DNA from: Shigella phage vB_SsoM_JK08
Sequence record: LR877332
Length of the DNA: 64,000 nt
Reading direction: 5' to 3' (one strand)
Of the stretch, positions 1 to 8,797 are shown in pieces. Each line of letters opens with the position of its first letter. Within the stretch, counting starts at the first letter, position 1. The translations under genes and the position numbers were made by a program. Under the pieces are notes generated by a model. The model ran no database searches. It saw only the letters and a program-made list of their open reading frames with translations, and had not been told where the DNA came from.

Positions 1-305
1 CAATTTCTAAACATCTCATGCTCTACTGGAATCGTATAATAAAATAACTGTAAGTCTTTATTACTAGAATATTTAAATACACCTAGGTCTTCTAGAAGGT
101 CTGGATTATAATTGCTAAAACCGGTCTCTTCTAAGCATTCTCTTTTTGCAGCTTCCAGTGCATTCAAATCAGAACTTTCTACGCGGCCCTTTGGAATATC
201 CCAGCGATGTGCCATCATTCCAGGCTTACGAGAACCAGTAACCCGACCCATAAATAAATCTTTATCTTCTGTCATAAAGATAATACCAGCTGATAGTGTT
301 TTCAT
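1..305 (-). CDS. nudE: Nudix hydrolase NudE (T4 e.1), 3' end cut by window edge
   Basis: Minus-strand reading frame runs off the window start, ATG at 303-305; translation contains a Nudix box (GRVESSDLNALEAAKRECLEETG). The plus ORF 112..327 in the track is antisense to it. Confidence 0.8.
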   Translation of the reverse strand, partial: MKTLSAGIIFMTEDKDLFMGRVTGSRKPGMMAHRWDIPKGRVESSDLNALEAAKRECLEETGFSNYNPDLLEDLGVFKYSSNKDLQLFYYTIPVEHEMFRN

Positions 306-790
306 TTTAATTTCCTGCATTCAGTGATAAAGTTATTTAAATTTTGAGTATATTTCTTTTCATCAAAAATCTTTTGTTGTCTGCGTAAACGCCATGGCAT
401 TTCAATGAACATACGCCATATTCCTGATAATACTGCTGCTGTAAAAATATTAACAAGTATAGTTAAAAGAACCCAATCTCCTATTCTGTCCATTGGATTT
501 TTTATAAAAAAGTAAAATACGAACGATGATATAGGAAGACTAATGATATACCACAGAAGAACCTTCTTATCTGTGAACCAATCAGCATTCGTTAACTTAG
601 CGCGACCGTTTTGAATACATACGAACTTATCATCTGTTACAGTAAATGGCTTAGCTGCTTGATATCCCATTCTAAACTCCCTAATCAACAAATTTTTCAT
701 ATCTTCGGAACAACCATTCCAGTCAACTCTATCAACTGAAATGCCATCATCCCCATCATCTAAATCATACCAGCGAGTTTTTAAAATCAT
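302..790 (-). CDS. small membrane protein, paralog family member A
   Basis: 162 aa ORF with hydrophobic segments; ATGA overlap with nudE start; C-terminus ...FITECRKLK shares the motif seen in the next three genes. Confidence 0.6.
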   Translation of the reverse strand: MILKTRWYDLDDGDDGISVDRVDWNGCSEDMKNLLIREFRMGYQAAKPFTVTDDKFVCIQNGRAKLTNADWFTDKKVLLWYIISLPISSFVFYFFIKNPMDRIGDWVLLTILVNIFTAAVLSGIWRMFIEMPWRLRRQQKIFDEKKYTQNLNNFITECRKLK

Positions 791-1149
791 TTAATTTTCC
801 TACAATCACTCACAAACTCTTTCATTGACTCATTTTCAATATAAGACATGTAGCTATTATATTCTTTTAATTGTATTTTGTAATCCTTTTTTCTTTGCCA
901 ATTTATTTTAAAATTATCATAATGAAAATATAACATGGTACCAAAGAATGAAAATAATGAAATCGCTATAGTAAAACGAAGTTCACTCCAAACCTCTGTT
1001 ATAATTACTGTGCCGTCGATATTTAAAATAAAACAGTCAATTAACAATCCAATAAGACTACCCGCAAGAGCTGTAAATACTGATACAGCAAGAATTAATA
1101 GTGCCTCAGGAAACGAATATTTGACTTTATTTAGTTTTGGCTTTTGCAT
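787..1149 (-). CDS. small membrane protein, paralog family member B
   Basis: 120 aa, two hydrophobic helices, C-terminus ...MKEFVSDCRKIK; stop overlaps downstream start; AGGAAA Shine-Dalgarno of next gene lies inside its last codons. Confidence 0.6.
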   Translation of the reverse strand: MQKPKLNKVKYSFPEALLILAVSVFTALAGSLIGLLIDCFILNIDGTVIITEVWSELRFTIAISLFSFFGTMLYFHYDNFKINWQRKKDYKIQLKEYNSYMSYIENESMKEFVSDCRKIK

Positions 1150-1523
1150 CGTGATTCCTTAACAAATTTCATAATTTCATCAAATTCATACATATCTAGC
1201 TTAAGCTGGTGTTCCTTTTTAATCTTTTTACACTGAGCTTTCCAATCACGTACACGTTTACGATAATGTCTTCCTTGATACCAGTATCCTACCCAATTTA
1301 CGGGTACTAATAAAAGTGGAACTATTAATGGAAGAATTAGCATTAACACAAGTATTTCGCCAGAATCAATATCAGTCATAACATCTAAAACACCTCCAAT
1401 AATCAATAGAATTACAAATGATATGAGTATAACAGGACCTATTAACACATCAGTAGAAATTATCTGACGCTTTGGTTCATACTTCACAGGTTTACTTGGA
1501 AGGTATAGTGATGGTTTTGACAT
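1131..1523 (-). CDS. small membrane protein, paralog family member C
   Basis: Track ORF 1131..1544 begins at TTG; first ATG (MSKPSL) at 1523; very hydrophobic core; C-terminus ...MKFVKESRCKSQN. Confidence 0.55.
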   Translation of the reverse strand: MSKPSLYLPSKPVKYEPKRQIISTDVLIGPVILISFVILLIIGGVLDVMTDIDSGEILVLMLILPLIVPLLLVPVNWVGYWYQGRHYRKRVRDWKAQCKKIKKEHQLKLDMYEFDEIMKFVKESRCKSQN

Positions 1524-2106
1524 ATTCTCTACATTCCTTAACAAATTTTTCTAGTAATAAATCACTTTCAAAATTGGGATTTTCTACAAATTTATCAAAA
1601 AGATCATCAACAATAGTTAAGATATTCTTTTTACTAAGAATACGTTTATTTTCATGCTTCGTTTCAGAATCAACTATAAGAGTAAAGAAATATTTCTTGC
1701 CCTGAAATTTTACAGTAGTATCAATATAAAATAAATTTGACTTTTGTAAATTACGTTTAAACCATGCGTCACTTAAACTATAAACACCGAGATAATCAAA
1801 ATCGTCGTTTAAATAACAAACCGTCCATTCAGGAGAAATGAAATCAGTAAATTCAACATCAAAATCACACGTCAATGAATGAATTGATTCAATACTGTTA
1901 ATGAGTATTCCAGGACGTATTAAAGACTTTTTACCTCTAGAAAATCTTCCGGAAAGGCTTTCATCAGTTTCATATGAAGACCCCCAATAGTAATTACGTC
2001 CTTCTGCCATGCGTTTAAGAGCATTTAGTAATTGGTCTGGAACATCAACCTGTCTTTGGAACTCTTCAAACATTGAATTGAAATCACTTTGCATTTTCAT
2101 TTTCAT
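1492..2106 (-). CDS. hypothetical protein
   Basis: 204 aa ORF; C-terminus ...EKFVKECREYVKT carries the same junction motif and overlaps the start of the downstream gene. Confidence 0.6.
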   Translation of the reverse strand: MKMKMQSDFNSMFEEFQRQVDVPDQLLNALKRMAEGRNYYWGSSYETDESLSGRFSRGKKSLIRPGILINSIESIHSLTCDFDVEFTDFISPEWTVCYLNDDFDYLGVYSLSDAWFKRNLQKSNLFYIDTTVKFQGKKYFFTLIVDSETKHENKRILSKKNILTIVDDLFDKFVENPNFESDLLLEKFVKECREYVKTITIPSK

Positions 2107-2147
2107 TCCTATTTACTCCAAGTATAAGGGGCCGAAGCCCCTTATCA

Positions 2148-2741
2148 TTATTTCAGAGAATTAATGTATTCCTGAACATCGGCAGAGGTAGTTTCAACCC
2201 CAGAAATATTACCGTTAAAGGTTTCAACTCGAGCAAGGGTATCTTCAATATCAACCTTAGTCAGTGCTGCAATTTCAACTACATCATCAGCAGTACTAAT
2301 TCCAAGGGCATTTGCTGCACGAGTTTCACGGATATATTCCAATTTAACCGCAAGTTCTTGACGAGCATCATCTAACTCAACTACTTTCTTGGCGATTTCA
2401 ATTCGCATTTCAGCATAACCGTCAGCCTTAGTAGTCAACTGCTCAGCTGTTCGACGATATAGTAAACCGAGTTTAGCATGCATTGTTACATCTTGGCCTT
2501 CGGAAAGAAGTTTACGAATTTCACGCTCTTTTGATTCGGCCTGTCGATTCTTTTCGATAACAAGTTCACGAATACGTTTTTCTTCGTTAATAGATTTAAC
2601 AGAAGCAGTTTTTAGATCTTTAATTTTATCAAGTAGTTTTGCTGCTGCAGCAGTATACTGTTCTTCGACAGATAGATTTTTAGCCATAGCAGAACCAAGT
2701 TTAGTGCGAATAAACTCAACAATTTTCTTCAGTGTGTTCAT
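2148..2741 (-). CDS. coiled-coil protein, possibly PspA/IM30-like
   Basis: 197 aa, charged heptad-like sequence throughout, amphipathic N-terminus; promoter-early stem-loop immediately upstream. Confidence 0.6.
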
Positions 2742-2807
2742 AGTATTTCCTTAGGTTAATTGAGATTTAAAATCCGTAGGAGTATAATACTCTATCGTCA
2801 AATTATA

Positions 2808-2842
2808 GGCTCATAATATCTCAATCATGAGCCTGCGTAAAC
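2808..2842 (-). promoter_or_regulatory. early promoter with stem-loop (PeSL-like)
   Basis: On minus strand GTTTAC -35, about 18 nt spacer, TATTAT -10 embedded in inverted repeat GGCTCAT...ATGAGCC; upstream of gene 2148..2741. Confidence 0.5.
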
Positions 2843-3106
2843 TTATTTCATATTATTGAAATATTCTTCTGCGATTTCGTCGTTATCATGGTAAACTTTA
2901 GAAGACAGTTTAACATAACCTTCTGCTGTGAACATATTAATCACAACTTTTACAGTATACCACTGACCGTCTTCATTACCCATTACTGCGTAAGTTTCAA
3001 ACATCGGATGATCAGGACCGATAACTTTAATATCATTCACTGTACGACCGAAATCTTCTGAAACGCATTTCATAAAGAAGTTGAACAGTTCGCCGTAATT
3101 ATCCAT
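2843..3106 (-). CDS. hypothetical protein
   Basis: Start set at ATG 3104-3106 (MDNYGELF) with GGAG 8 nt upstream; the longer track ORF to 3226 lacks a ribosome-binding site. Confidence 0.5.
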   Translation of the reverse strand: MDNYGELFNFFMKCVSEDFGRTVNDIKVIGPDHPMFETYAVMGNEDGQWYTVKVVINMFTAEGYVKLSSKVYHDNDEIAEEYFNNMK

Positions 3107-3149
3107 TTCATTCTCCAAGTTGTTTTCTGTATCAGTAGTTGATAGTTGT

Positions 3150-3178
3150 ATAGTACCATGGAAGAACAGAGATGTAAA
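3150..3178 (-). promoter_or_regulatory. early sigma70-like promoter
   Basis: Minus strand TTTACA, 17 nt spacer, TACTAT; preceded by TTTCACAAA block shared with the ipI-locus promoters. Confidence 0.45.
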
Positions 3179-3335
3179 CAGTTTTGTGAAAAAATTTTTA
3201 GGGAATTCTAGGGCAGGGATGGGCAATTAAAGGATAGGATAATATATTATAAAGGGTATAAACTAAATGATGCCTAGAGAGGTCCAGAAAGGCCTAGATA
3301 CCAAAAAGCCCTATCATTTAGATAGGGATTTAAAA

Positions 3336-3899
3336 TTATTTACCTAGTTTACTTATTATAGCTTCTGCAGCAGCTTTTAGCTTAGATGCAGTGTTAATAC
3401 GATTTTTAATTTCAGTATACGCATCGCCAAGAACATCAAGGCTATCAGAATAAACACTTACACTATTGCGTTCGCTATTTGAAATAGAACCTTTAGTTTT
3501 GCGGTCAAAATCGGTGTACACGTCTTGAAGATCGCGGGCTGCCTTCTTTGCATCATCCAATGCATCAAGAGCTTTATTCAAAGCATTAACGTATTTTTTA
3601 GTGTCGAACATATTCTTAGAAATTTTAACAGGTGCGCGTTCAGGAGTAGCTAACACAGATTTAGGAACCTGAGCGCCAGATGCCAATTTCTTAGAAATTT
3701 TGAAAAATGCTTTATTGAATTTATTTTCTTGACTCATTGTAAAAGAACTATTATCGATGTTGTACATTTCAATAGCTTTAGCTTTCCACTTAAGAAAATC
3801 GCCGCGGTCTTTTGGGTCCAATTGGAAGAATACTTTAGTAAGATCTGCTTCAGATGGTAATTTTGCTGCTTCGGTTAAAAATTCGGCATAGGTTTTCAT
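3336..3899 (-). CDS. internal-protein-like capsid-targeted protein
   Basis: 187 aa; N-terminus MKTYAEFLTEA matches the T4 internal protein capsid-targeting sequence MKTYQEFIAEA, with a protease-type LTE site. Confidence 0.6.
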   Translation of the reverse strand: MKTYAEFLTEAAKLPSEADLTKVFFQLDPKDRGDFLKWKAKAIEMYNIDNSSFTMSQENKFNKAFFKISKKLASGAQVPKSVLATPERAPVKISKNMFDTKKYVNALNKALDALDDAKKAARDLQDVYTDFDRKTKGSISNSERNSVSVYSDSLDVLGDAYTEIKNRINTASKLKAAAEAIISKLGK

Positions 3900-4024: not shown

Positions 4025-4498
4025 TCATTTGATTTGTTTAGCAGACCAAATGCGGTCTTTAATAATTTTTTGGATGTCTTCAACATACTCAAGAGAGTGA
4101 ACATGTGGATTATCTTTGAAACTATAAGCACGGGCTAACTTTTGGCCTTCGGTTTTGATTACTAAAAGCTCTTTAAGGATAGCTTCATATTTGGAGATAA
4201 TTCCTTTAACAATATTTTTCTCTTGTGTGACTTTAGGATCTTCTTTAGGAGCAGGTTTACCTGAAGCCTTTGCAAAAGCAGCTCCAGTAGCAACTAAACT
4301 TTTCCAAGCCATACTAACTGCATTCCCTGTAAATCCTTCGGCTTTCATATCACGAGCAAATTGGAATCGTGATTCATCGGAAGCATCTTTATAGGAATAT
4401 TTACCCGCGGCAATGGCAGCTTTTGCAACAGCTTGAATTTCAGTGCTAGATGCTTCATTTAACACCGCTTCATTTAAAAATTGAGTATATGATTTCAT
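4025..4498 (-). CDS. internal-protein-like capsid-targeted protein
   Basis: 157 aa; N-terminus MKSYTQFLNEA resembles the capsid-targeting sequence; late promoter TATAAATA directly upstream. Confidence 0.6.
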   Translation of the reverse strand: MKSYTQFLNEAVLNEASSTEIQAVAKAAIAAGKYSYKDASDESRFQFARDMKAEGFTGNAVSMAWKSLVATGAAFAKASGKPAPKEDPKVTQEKNIVKGIISKYEAILKELLVIKTEGQKLARAYSFKDNPHVHSLEYVEDIQKIIKDRIWSAKQIK

Positions 4499-4888: not shown

Positions 4889-4964
4889 TGGTCGAGGCAG
4901 TAGGGATCGAACCTACGACCCAGGACTTAGAAGGTCCTTGCTCTTCCTTCTGAGCTATGCCTCG
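4889..4964 (-). tRNA. tRNA-Arg (anticodon TCT), CCA encoded
   Basis: Manual cloverleaf: acceptor CGAGGCA/TGCCTCG, D-stem GCTC/GAGC, anticodon stem AGGAC/GTCCT with loop CTTCTAA, T-loop TTCGATC. Confidence 0.85.
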
Positions 4965-4968
4965 TATT

Positions 4969-5043
4969 TGGCGGACGTGATAGGATTCGAACCTATAACC
5001 AATCGCTTAACAGGCGATCGCTCTGCCATTGAGCTACACATCC
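4969..5043 (-). tRNA. tRNA-Asn (anticodon GTT), CCA encoded
   Basis: Cloverleaf: acceptor GGATGTG/CACGTCC, D-stem GCTC/GAGC, anticodon loop CTGTTAA, T-loop TTCGAAT. Confidence 0.8.
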
Positions 5044-5047
5044 AAAT

Positions 5048-5134
5048 TGGTGGGGAGTGGTGGAGTCGAACCACCCGAGTCGCAATGACAATGAATTTAC
5101 AGTCCACACCGCTACCTCTACGGGATAACTCCCC
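5048..5134 (-). tRNA. tRNA-Tyr (anticodon GTA), long variable arm
   Basis: Acceptor GGGGAGT/ACTCCCC, anticodon loop CTGTAAA, long variable arm, T-stem GGTGG/CCACC; D-arm and anticodon stem less canonical. Confidence 0.6.
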
Positions 5135-5143
5135 AAATTAATT

Positions 5144-5218
5144 TGGTGGCCCTGGGTGGAATTGAACCACCATCTGGCGATTATGAGTCGCTTGCTTGAA
5201 CCTTCCAGCTACAGGGCC
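5144..5218 (-). tRNA. tRNA with anticodon CAT (Met, or Ile if lysidine-modified)
   Basis: Acceptor GGCCCTG/CAGGGCC, anticodon loop CTCATAA, T-loop TTCAATT; occupies the position of T4 tRNA-Ile. Confidence 0.75.
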
Positions 5219-5219
5219 T

Positions 5220-5295
5220 TGGTGCTGATTGACGGAATCGAACCGCCGACCTTCTCATTACAAGTGAGTTGCTCTACCTACTGAGCTAAATCAGC
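5220..5295 (-). tRNA. tRNA-Thr (anticodon TGT)
   Basis: Acceptor GCTGATT/AATCAGC, D-stem GCTC/GAGC, anticodon loop CTTGTAA, T-loop TTCGATT. Confidence 0.85.
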
Positions 5296-5300
5296 AAAAC

Positions 5301-5390
5301 TGGCGGAGGCGATAGGATTTGAACCTATGAGTCGCCGGAGCGACTGCCGGTTTTCAAGACCGGTGCATTAAACCACTCTGCCACGCCTCC
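5301..5390 (-). tRNA. tRNA-Ser (anticodon TGA), long variable arm
   Basis: Acceptor GGAGGCG/CGCCTCC, anticodon stem CCGGT/ACCGG with loop CTTGAAA, variable-arm helix AGTCGC/GCGACT, T-loop TTCAAAT. Confidence 0.85.
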
Positions 5391-5392
5391 AG

Positions 5393-5466
5393 TCTCCGTG
5401 GCAGGATTTGAACCTACGACATTCTGCTCCCAAAGCAGACGCTCTACCAAACTGAGCTACACGGAG
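5393..5466 (-). tRNA. tRNA-Pro (anticodon TGG), CCA not encoded
   Basis: Acceptor CTCCGTG/CACGGAG, D-stem GCTC/GAGC, anticodon stem TCTGC/GCAGA with loop TTTGGGA. Confidence 0.85.
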
Positions 5467-5476
5467 TAAATTAAAT

Positions 5477-5550
<74 letters not shown>

Positions 5551-5555
5551 AAATT

Positions 5556-5642
5556 TGGTGCGAGAAGTGGGACTCGAACCCACAAGGAAATCATTCCGCA
5601 GCATTTTAAGTGCTGTGCCTTTACCAATTTGGCCATTCTCGC
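5556..5642 (-). tRNA. tRNA-Leu (anticodon TAA), long variable arm
   Basis: Acceptor GCGAGAA/TTCTCGC, anticodon stem CAGCA/TGCTG with loop CTTAAAA, T-loop GTTCGAGT; one nt from tRNA-Gln. Confidence 0.85.
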
Positions 5643-5643
5643 G

Positions 5644-5716
5644 CTGGGAATAAAGGACTCGAACCTTTGCATCCTGGAATCAAAATCCAGTGCCTTACCA
5701 ACTTGGCTAATTCCCA
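5644..5716 (-). tRNA. tRNA-Gln (anticodon TTG), CCA not encoded
   Basis: Acceptor TGGGAAT/ATTCCCA, anticodon stem CTGGA/TCCAG with loop TTTTGAT, T-stem AAAGG/CCTTT. Confidence 0.85.
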
Positions 5717-6706: not shown

Positions 6707-6744
6707 GATAGGGTAATAGTATCACTACCCTATCTAAAAGTAAA
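6707..6744 (-). promoter_or_regulatory. promoter-early stem-loop (PeSL) cassette
   Basis: Minus strand TTTACT -35, 17 nt spacer, TACTAT -10 inside perfect inverted repeat GATAGGGTA...TACCCTATC. Confidence 0.55.
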
Positions 6745-6745
6745 C

Positions 6746-7005: not shown

Positions 7006-7042
7006 ATAGGGTAATAGTATCACAACTAAAACCCTATGTAAA
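7006..7042 (-). promoter_or_regulatory. promoter-early stem-loop (PeSL) cassette
   Basis: TTTACA, 17 nt spacer, TACTAT with inverted repeat TAGGGT...ACCCTA; adjoining 30 nt block GTAAACAACTTTGTGAAATTATTTTAAATC repeated at 7367-7396. Confidence 0.55.
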
Positions 7043-7055
7043 CAACTTTGTGAAA

Positions 7056-7335: not shown

Positions 7336-7373
7336 GATGAGGTAATAGTATCACTACCTCATCAGTATGTAAA
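7336..7373 (-). promoter_or_regulatory. promoter-early stem-loop (PeSL) cassette
   Basis: TTTACA, 17 nt spacer, TACTAT inside inverted repeat GATGAGGTA...TACCTCATC, immediately after 57B stop. Confidence 0.55.
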
Positions 7374-7386
7374 CAACTTTGTGAAA

Positions 7387-8071
<685 letters not shown>

Positions 8072-8072
<1 letters not shown>

Positions 8073-8797
8073 TATAGTACCTTTAGTGTATTTTTAATTT
8101 TAGAAAAAAGTTCTTCAAGAGAACCATCGTTTGTAATTACTAAATCGCCATCACGAATTGGCAATCCAGCTTCTGTAATATGTGTATCATTGGATTTTTG
8201 ACCAGGACGAACTACATGAATTACTGTAGCACCCATCGCCCTAGCCGCATCCATTTCATGATCTTGACGGGTATCAGGAACGATATAATAATCATAACCT
8301 GAGTTAAATTTATCAAGATAATCTAAAGCAAATAATTTTACCCAGTACATGCGGTCGAAGTTATTAACAATCAAATCCGTACCTAGGGCTTGCATCAGAC
8401 GACGGACTGACCATTGATCTTCAATATTATTTATAACGTCAATAATCTTGTTAAATGCTACGGAATTAACTGATTCTTGTCCTTCGTCATCAAAAACAAA
8501 CACACCTTTAATTGGGCTTTTACCATTAAGATAGCAAAATGCTTGTTCCATAATCGTGATTACTTCTAATTTAGTTAGATTTAAATTAGTCTCACGATCA
8601 TAGTCAATTCCTTCAAACTCTTTACGAGTTAAGCAAGGATAGTCGGTATTTGCTGCAAATACTCCCCATGCATAAGCCAATGCATCCTTAATAGGACCAG
8701 CAAGTTGGTATTTAACTGCAGAATAATTGCTCATGATAAAATCAGCAGTAGTATCTTTTCCACTACGCTTTACACCGCTTAAAAAGATTAGTTTCAT
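8072..8797 (-). CDS. 1: deoxynucleoside monophosphate kinase
   Basis: 241 aa, P-loop GVKRSGKDT near N-terminus; length and position match T4 gp1. Confidence 0.9.

Follow-up and report, generated by a model that had tools for sequence, protein, structure and literature searches.

Gene e.6 of T4-like phages very probably encodes a diverged viral homologue of PspA/IM30/Vipp1

The 64,000-nucleotide stretch of DNA from Shigella phage vB_SsoM_JK08 analyzed here (sequence record LR877332; the whole stretch is referred to as the window) carries on its minus strand a gene for a protein of 197 amino acids (aa), which an earlier note, made from the letters alone, had described as a coiled-coil protein with possible PspA/IM30-like character behind its own early promoter. 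The open reading frame (ORF) was confirmed at positions 2148-2741 with an ATG start, and its product corresponds over its full length to e.6 of phage T4 (NP_049742; 194 of 197 residues identical, 98%). By transitive homology, e.6 is very probably a diverged viral homologue of PspA/IM30/Vipp1. The reading of its role favored here, by a modest balance of probability and by analogy, is that e.6 is an early-transcribed, shortened (197 aa) protein of this branch that would act on the stressed host inner membrane.

The window protein is assigned to phrog_1203 (E 1.6e-87). The 2 kb around e.6 are 100% identical to phages DalCa, fPS-90 and several other Tequatrovirus genomes, and 549 phage records match this region, 498 of them with at least 80% coverage. 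Sequence comparison places the window in a Tequatrovirus (T4-like) genome, and e.6 is nearly universal in that genus. In RefSeq the T4 gene is labeled ‘e.6 conserved hypothetical protein’, a 2025 genome-wide T4 screen lists its function as unknown (PMC11879866 supplement), and nothing was found on its function in the literature beyond omics and screen tables.

The link to PspA/IM30/Vipp1 runs through related phages. Direct scans of the window protein against Pfam, NCBIfam and PADLOC returned nothing informative. A profile of the T4-like sequences, searched against 1.84 billion cluster representatives, found only about 45 proteins, and the complete ones among them are all about 195-209 aa long and collinear with the query. 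The matches include P0065 (E 1.5e-21) and P0066 (E 8.2e-20), which score 35.1 and 39.0 bits with the Pfam family PF04012 (PspA_IM30), both above its gathering score of 33.9, in an alignment of residues 6-146 to profile positions 2-143; P0067 and P0068 score 22 bits. The relatives of P0065 and P0066 belong to Ackermannviridae (Kuttervirus, Taipeivirus), where many members carry a precomputed PF04012 match and some bear the NCBI name ‘PspA/IM30 family protein’. Both groups fall in phrog_1203, and hhalign joins the T4-like and Ackermannviridae alignments at 99.6% (E 2.7e-24, 197 columns). Homology of e.6 to bona fide PspA/IM30 members was thus found by a transitive, profile-based route. A profile of the whole family, searched against 177,635 PDB sequences, ranked Vipp1/PspA entries in all of the top eight places (E 2.1e-5 to 2.1e-4), with family positions 1-145 aligned to 1-146 and residue 1 to residue 1.

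The main challenge to this homology is that e.6 could be a generic coiled-coil phage protein whose Vipp1 matches derive from its helical, charged composition, a reading with which the virion-role names of some homologues would belong. It would be favored by the lack of a direct Pfam match, by the large HMMER composition-bias terms (16-17 bits) and by the fact that coiled coils are known for spurious matches. Shuffled and reversed controls were run for this last reason: the family profile scored 30.3 bits on Vipp1(1-148), whereas the best of 1000 shuffles reached 8.6 and the reversed sequence 0.5. Circular permutations retained most of the collinear segment and hence were uninformative as controls. 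Although coiled coils number in the thousands in the PDB, Vipp1/PspA took all eight top places, with alignments that start at residue 1 on both sides; two family members exceed the curated Pfam threshold, and the helix boundaries of e.6 match those of PspA. A virion role also does not fit the early-class transcription described below, and the structural names have no search support. The generic coiled-coil reading is therefore very improbable and is considered largely refuted. The profile search that the earlier note had set as a check drew no claim on e.6 from an unrelated coiled-coil family, and the PspA/IM30-like character it had suggested stands as a statement of ancestry only, carried by the profile chain, the PDB ranking and the predicted hairpin described below.

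The names in question are those of several homologues (P0003, P0034 and P0037 from UniRef, hits H39, H44, H51 and H53, and BFVD entry A0A5Q2F7S5), to which public records give the name ‘Host specificity protein’ or ‘Tail completion protein’. These labels were without support in any search run and look like propagated mis-annotations. Separately, in phage RB43 (L006, 2501-2986) e.6 is annotated as a 97 aa protein comprising the C-terminal half, although tblastn matches there reach upstream as far as query residue 42; the short form might be explained by a frameshift, by a pseudogene or by a start that was called wrongly.

The predicted structure divides the gene and its product into the following parts.

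2148-2741, minus strand: e.6, 197 aa plus stop, ATG start; very probable diverged phage member of the PspA/IM30/Vipp1 (ESCRT-III) superfamily
2676-2735, minus strand: predicted N-terminal cationic amphipathic helix (α0 equivalent), codons 3-22; AlphaFold2 helix at low predicted local distance difference test (pLDDT) score
2502-2669, minus strand: predicted hairpin arm 1 (α1), codons 25-80; AlphaFold2 pLDDT mostly above 90; aligned to Vipp1 α1
2307-2486, minus strand: predicted hairpin arm 2 (α2/3), codons 86-145; AlphaFold2 helix; collinear with Vipp1 to about residue 145
2151-2306, minus strand: C-terminal region, codons 146-197; conserved; AlphaFold2 confidence low to moderate

Two AlphaFold2 models of e.6 were obtained, from alignments of 41 and 54 sequences and with mean pLDDT of 76.9 and 80.0. 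The helical residues number 158 and 162 of 197 (80-82%), which bears out the description of the protein as almost entirely helical. Both models exceed a pLDDT of 90 across most of residues 25-145, where they place a long α1-α2/3 hairpin of the PspA/IM30 kind with a tip loop at residues 81-85 (EGQDV); the hairpin of PspA/Vipp1 spans aa 24-142 (PMC8281802). The helical hairpin for which the earlier note had proposed a structure prediction is accordingly present in the models, with its arms at 25-80 and 86-145. In a Foldseek search of the PDB, the top nine matches were Vipp1 (E 1.4e-3 to 6e-2, probability about 1), followed by the archaeal ESCRT-III protein CdvB2. In BFVD the closest structures are members of the e.6 family, and next comes an Acinetobacter phage ME3 protein named PspA/IM30.

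At the N-terminus, the hydrophobic moment over residues 2-19 is 0.45, compared with 0.42 for Escherichia coli PspA and 0.57 for Vipp1, and the net charge over residues 1-22 is +4. The hydrophobic positions (4, 7, 10, 11, 15, 18 and 19) are the same as in PspA and Vipp1. The moment itself is only marginal against shuffled sequences, 7% of which reach 0.45. The claim of an amphipathic N-terminus thus holds on moment, charge and shared register, and an α0 of the PspA/IM30 family is present in e.6 as a predicted helix. K, R, D and E make up 34% of the protein, which contains no Pro, Cys or Trp, and the 3.5-residue hydrophobic periodicity of residues 25-145 was reached by only 20 of 5000 shuffles, in keeping with the charged heptad-like stretches noted earlier. 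In the C-terminal region a Gly hinge (G147) is accompanied by short helices and, at 186-196, by a terminal helix, and both G147 and Y192 are nearly invariant. Its ‘ARVETF’ aligns with ‘ARFESF’ of PspA α4 in hhalign and in a local BLASTP match to PspA 160-178, and equivalents of α4/α5 are possible in this part of the model.

Among known systems, Vipp1/IM30 of Synechocystis (sll0617, PDB 7O3W) and Nostoc (PDB 6ZVR) is the best match in both sequence and fold. The two align collinearly over residues 1 to about 145, and e.6, like Vipp1, is predicted to have α0, the α1-α2/3 hairpin, a Gly at the tip and a Gly-rich hinge after α3. Unlike Vipp1 (about 260-270 aa), it is 197 aa long without the C-terminal α6 extension, its α0-α1 linker reads ‘KNLSVEE’ rather than ‘AEDP’, its α4/α5 region is shorter and diverged, and identity is about 14-17%; it also comes from a lytic phage and is expressed early. 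With PspA of E. coli and LiaH of Bacillus (PF04012), e.6 has the superfamily, the helix layout and the α0 hydrophobic register in common, along with an α4 motif that reads ‘ARFESFE’ in PspA and ‘ARVETFN’ in e.6, and one family member gives a weak collinear match to LiaH. Unlike these proteins, e.6 lacks a PspBC/PspF or LiaI-type context, and its direct similarity to host PspA is very weak. The Ackermannviridae members of phrog_1203 (Salmonella phages Vi01, moki and SeF3a Gp_125; Klebsiella phage T751) are true e.6 homologues of the same length but are only about 22-25% identical to it, pass the Pfam threshold that e.6 does not, and lie among replication genes and a protein with an N-terminal transmembrane (TM) segment, whereas e.6 lies beside e.5-e.2. 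ESCRT-III proper (archaeal CdvB2, eukaryotic Snf7/CHMP) has the superfamily fold in common with e.6, but its structural scores are marginal (E 0.07-0.3) and it gives no sequence signal, and no Vps4-type ATPase partner is evident near e.6.

The signals that bear on the expression of e.6 are listed below.

2813-2842, minus strand: T4-type early promoter, GTTTAC (2842-2837), 18 nt, TATTAT (2818-2813)
2808-2833, minus strand: inverted repeat GGCTCAT (2833-2827) / ATGAGCC (2814-2808), 7 bp stem and 12-nt loop
2748-2752, minus strand: strong Shine-Dalgarno AAGGA, 6 nt before the ATG, from sequence and T4 alignment
2813-2842, 3150-3179, 6716-6745, 7014-7043 and 7345-7374, minus strand: matches to GTTTAC-N18-TAYWAT from a pattern search
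2124-2145, minus strand: GC-rich hairpin AUAAGGGGC-UUCG-GCCCCUUAU with a UUCG loop, between e.6 and e.5

The promoter starts immediately past the stop codon of the upstream gene, the homologue of T4 e.8, and the inverted repeat, which overlaps the promoter spacer and the -10 box, is conserved before e.7 in T4. A search for GTTTAC-N17-19-TAYWAT gave 5 matches in the window, always on the minus strand, where 0.23 would be expected, and in 14 kb of T4 it gave 7, every one of them intergenic and on the minus strand, where 0.04 would be expected; the enrichment is more than 20-fold and strand-specific. Three of the five window matches have GTGATACTAT at the -10 box in common, and the five sites probably make up the set of T4-type early promoters in this genome region. 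The e.6 promoter of the window differs very little from the one that T4 has between e.8 and e.7, and T4 carries a further GTTTAC-N18-TATTAT directly before e.6. The window phage lacks e.7 (window 2742-2880 versus T4 7907-8400): the 3' end of e.8, the promoter and the stem-loop of T4 e.7 are joined to the last approximately 20 nt of the e.6 leader, and e.6 therefore uses the ‘e.7’ promoter. In the region of the Shine-Dalgarno sequence, the leader aligns identically with that of T4 e.6. A TATAAT at 2807-2802 was rejected as an alternative -10 box, as no acceptable -35 lies 16-19 nt from it.

In time-course omics of T4, e.6 RNA is of the early class and the protein of the middle class (PMC9697503 supplement), and its detection there indicates that the protein is made. 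Together with the pattern enrichment and the conservation in T4, the published RNA class upholds the early promoter that had been proposed at 2808-2842. The hairpin after e.6 has the stem letters GGGGC-UUCG-GCCCC and is annotated as a rho-independent terminator in phage DalCa. On the minus strand it has no U-run, for which reason it is more likely to be a partial terminator or an RNA-stabilizing hairpin.

The gene, its expression signals, its homology and its predicted fold are findings of the analysis, and they suggest the following course of action for a PspA/IM30/Vipp1-branch protein at the inner membrane. Transcribed from its T4-type early promoter, e.6 would accumulate by mid-infection. 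Its cationic amphipathic α0, the counterpart of the helix by which PspA and Vipp1 bind membranes, would attach e.6 to the host inner membrane from the cytoplasmic side, and the long α1-α2/3 hairpins would pack side by side into oligomers or carpets; assembly into rings, rods or carpets, together with membrane binding or remodeling, is the hallmark of the superfamily. Such an assembly could seal or stabilize a membrane stressed by genome injection, superinfection, phage membrane proteins or membrane-attacking abortive-infection effectors, and could thereby preserve the proton-motive force. Membrane binding, oligomerization and the physiological role are all inferred here from the behavior of the relatives. 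T4 shuts off host transcription, and the host would therefore be unable to induce its own psp response, so that a phage-encoded copy would make sense. Knockdown of T4 e.6 was scored ‘Not Fit’, meaning no fitness cost, under standard laboratory conditions (PMC11879866 supplement), an outcome that fits an accessory, condition-dependent role.

Several results weigh against a PspA/IM30/Vipp1-branch protein that works at the membrane. PF04012 gave no match to the window protein even at E <= 10, and e.6 itself does not pass the gathering threshold of 33.9 bits. A profile of T4-like sequences only, searched against the PDB, gave Vipp1 at only E 1.8-3.7, barely above shuffles. With the family profile, E. 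coli PspA scores 7.5 bits (PDB 4whe, E 0.26), and hhalign of the family against an enterobacterial PspA alignment that is itself too shallow to settle the matter (Neff 1.3) returned a 60-64% probability; the Ackermannviridae subgroup alone returned 3.6% against the same alignment, and pairwise BLASTP of e.6 with E. coli PspA found the α4 motif only. Given this weak similarity, the phage family does not stem from a recent capture of the host gene. In its C-terminal third e.6 falls short of PspA in length and is modeled at low confidence, which leaves the contact between α5 and the hairpin of a neighboring subunit, the interface that defines and builds ESCRT-III polymers, as a possible feature of e.6. 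No pspB/pspC/pspF-like or LiaI/LiaF-type genes were found among the neighbors, and a universal membrane-protein partner was dropped as an idea, since no membrane neighbor is conserved in all lineages. Binding of e.6 to the membrane is argued from analogy, and the lack of a fitness effect constitutes no positive evidence for any role.

The same early expression and dispensability also bear on the idea that phages keep a PspA-derived e.6 to neutralize abortive-infection systems that permeabilize or depolarize the inner membrane (Rex-like, pore-forming or TM effectors). This overlaps mechanistically with the membrane-stabilizing role proposed above and differs from it in selective pressure. Early expression would fit an anti-defense gene, as would the fact that e.6 can be spared in a defense-poor laboratory host, and the family is patchily distributed, with a variable neighborhood among accessory genes; a counter-defense role has also been proposed for a Kuttervirus member of phrog_1203 (PMC9409062). 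Against this, e.6 has no PADLOC or anti-defense family match and no experimental link to defense systems, and its near-universality in Tequatrovirus suits a general housekeeping or stress role equally well. As the primary reason for retaining e.6, counter-defense is judged unlikely.

The genes around e.6 lie in the order nudE, e.2, e.3, e.4, e.5, e.6, e.8, two internal-protein-like genes and a tRNA cluster, all on the minus strand. The nearest downstream neighbor is the following.

1492-2106, minus strand: e.5, 204 aa, no TM segment, phrog_2607

Scans of e.5 against Pfam and NCBIfam gave no match. In Tequatrovirus, Jiaodavirus and Ceceduovirus alike, the gene after e.6 belongs to the e.5 family (PHROGs 2607, 13418 and 16253, which cross-hit), and e.5 may be a partner of e.6. 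The homologues of e.2, e.3 and e.4 (302-1523, minus strand) have two predicted TM segments each by a simple hydropathy scan, and the immediate neighbors of e.6 (e.5, the 2-TM proteins e.4/e.3/e.2, and e.8) are phage ORFans with no Pfam or NCBIfam assignment. This block of small membrane proteins begins two genes downstream of e.6, and a similar block follows e.6/e.5 in Jiaodavirus (L007). In Kuttervirus, a protein with an N-terminal TM segment lies downstream of the e.6 homologue; no relation of this protein to e.5 could be detected (BLASTP E 0.23, different PHROG). Across the lineages compared, TM proteins occur near e.6 in Tequatrovirus, Jiaodavirus and Kuttervirus and do not in Ceceduovirus and Pseudotevenvirus-like phages.

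With such neighbors, the e.6 hairpin might bind a partner rather than lipid, the candidates being PspF, PspB/C, another ESCRT-III-like polymer or e.5. As a regulator or decoy of this kind, e.6 could interfere with the envelope-stress response of the host, by blocking or redirecting it, or could have a phage membrane protein or the timing of lysis under its control. The hairpin of E. coli PspA (1-144) doubles as its module for binding PspF, with a structure of this part available (4WHE), and the e.5-family gene after e.6 in three Straboviridae genera, the 2-TM e.4, e.3 and e.2 downstream here and the downstream TM protein in Kuttervirus all lend themselves to a partner. Mimicry of the host protein is opposed by the profile scores, which place e.6 far closer to Vipp1 (30.3 bits) than to E. 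coli PspA (7.5). The host transcription shutoff by T4 would leave repression of psp little to add, and the neighbors are not conserved in all lineages. A regulatory or decoy function is accordingly regarded as quite improbable.

A bolder form of the membrane-acting proposal is that e.6 is T4’s own ESCRT-III-superfamily polymer, possibly working with e.5, which would be deployed early to remodel or reseal the inner membrane and would be widespread in Straboviridae and Ackermannviridae. The phage would then possess a membrane-repair machine of its own in place of the Psp response that it has silenced in the host, and the uses of this machine could include closure of injection lesions, resistance to superinfection or immune effectors, and the timing of holin-dependent lysis. 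This extension is offered tentatively, with the balance of probability against it.

Several further observations concern the genes on either side of e.6. At the junctions e.5/e.4, e.4/e.3, e.3/e.2 and e.2/next (290-2110, minus strand), the gene ends encode a similar F-V/I-x-E/D-C/S-R-K, and the repeated 3'-end motif, TTTGTTAAGGAAT...ATG or TGTAGGAAA...ATG, supplies the overlapping gene that follows with its Shine-Dalgarno sequence and its start. The pattern looks more like translational coupling along a chain of genes than like paralogy of the proteins. Upstream of e.6, the mechanically called ORF at 2843-3226 (minus strand) encodes 127 aa from a TTG start, and both its PHROG match and the DalCa annotation start at Met41. 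The corresponding homologue of T4 e.8 has its ATG at 3106 and is 87 aa long, and the GTTTAC-type promoter at 3150-3179 lies inside the TTG-start extension; the 127 aa ORF is probably too long. Two tandem paralogues at 3336-3899 and 4025-4498 (minus strand; 187 and 157 aa, both phrog_2280) start with MKTYAEFLTEA and MKSYTQFLNEA, and T4 has no such genes between e.8 and its tRNA cluster. We take these N-termini to resemble the capsid-targeting N-termini of T4 internal proteins, and the paralogues may be extra injected internal proteins. The tRNA cluster itself (4889-5716, minus strand) has 10 genes, for Arg, Asn, Tyr, Met, Thr, Ser, Pro, Gly, Leu and Gln. That of T4 has 8, with Ile and without Asn, Tyr and Met, and is interrupted by the homing endonuclease gene segB, which is absent from the tRNA stretch of the window.

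The connection between phrog_1203 and PspA is itself already known for Kuttervirus and from some GenBank names. A 2022 paper used HHpred to link a phrog_1203 member of a Kuttervirus to PspA and proposed an anti-abortive-infection role (PMC9409062). In the literature, no statement of a PspA link was found for T4 e.6 or for T4-like phages, and the PspA/ESCRT-III literature examined does not discuss phage-encoded members, the sole explicit mention found being the short Kuttervirus paragraph (PMC9409062).

The assignment to the PspA/Vipp1/ESCRT-III superfamily gives one of the many early ORFans of T4 a cheaply testable hypothesis, and e.6 is an easy subject, being a small, soluble protein whose gene can be knocked out without loss of viability. 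If e.6 does bind and stabilize membranes, lytic phages would bring their own repair factor because that of the host has been silenced. Such a factor would be relevant to long-standing observations that cells infected by T4 leak transiently and then reseal, and to the resistance of phages to membrane-depolarizing abortive-infection systems.

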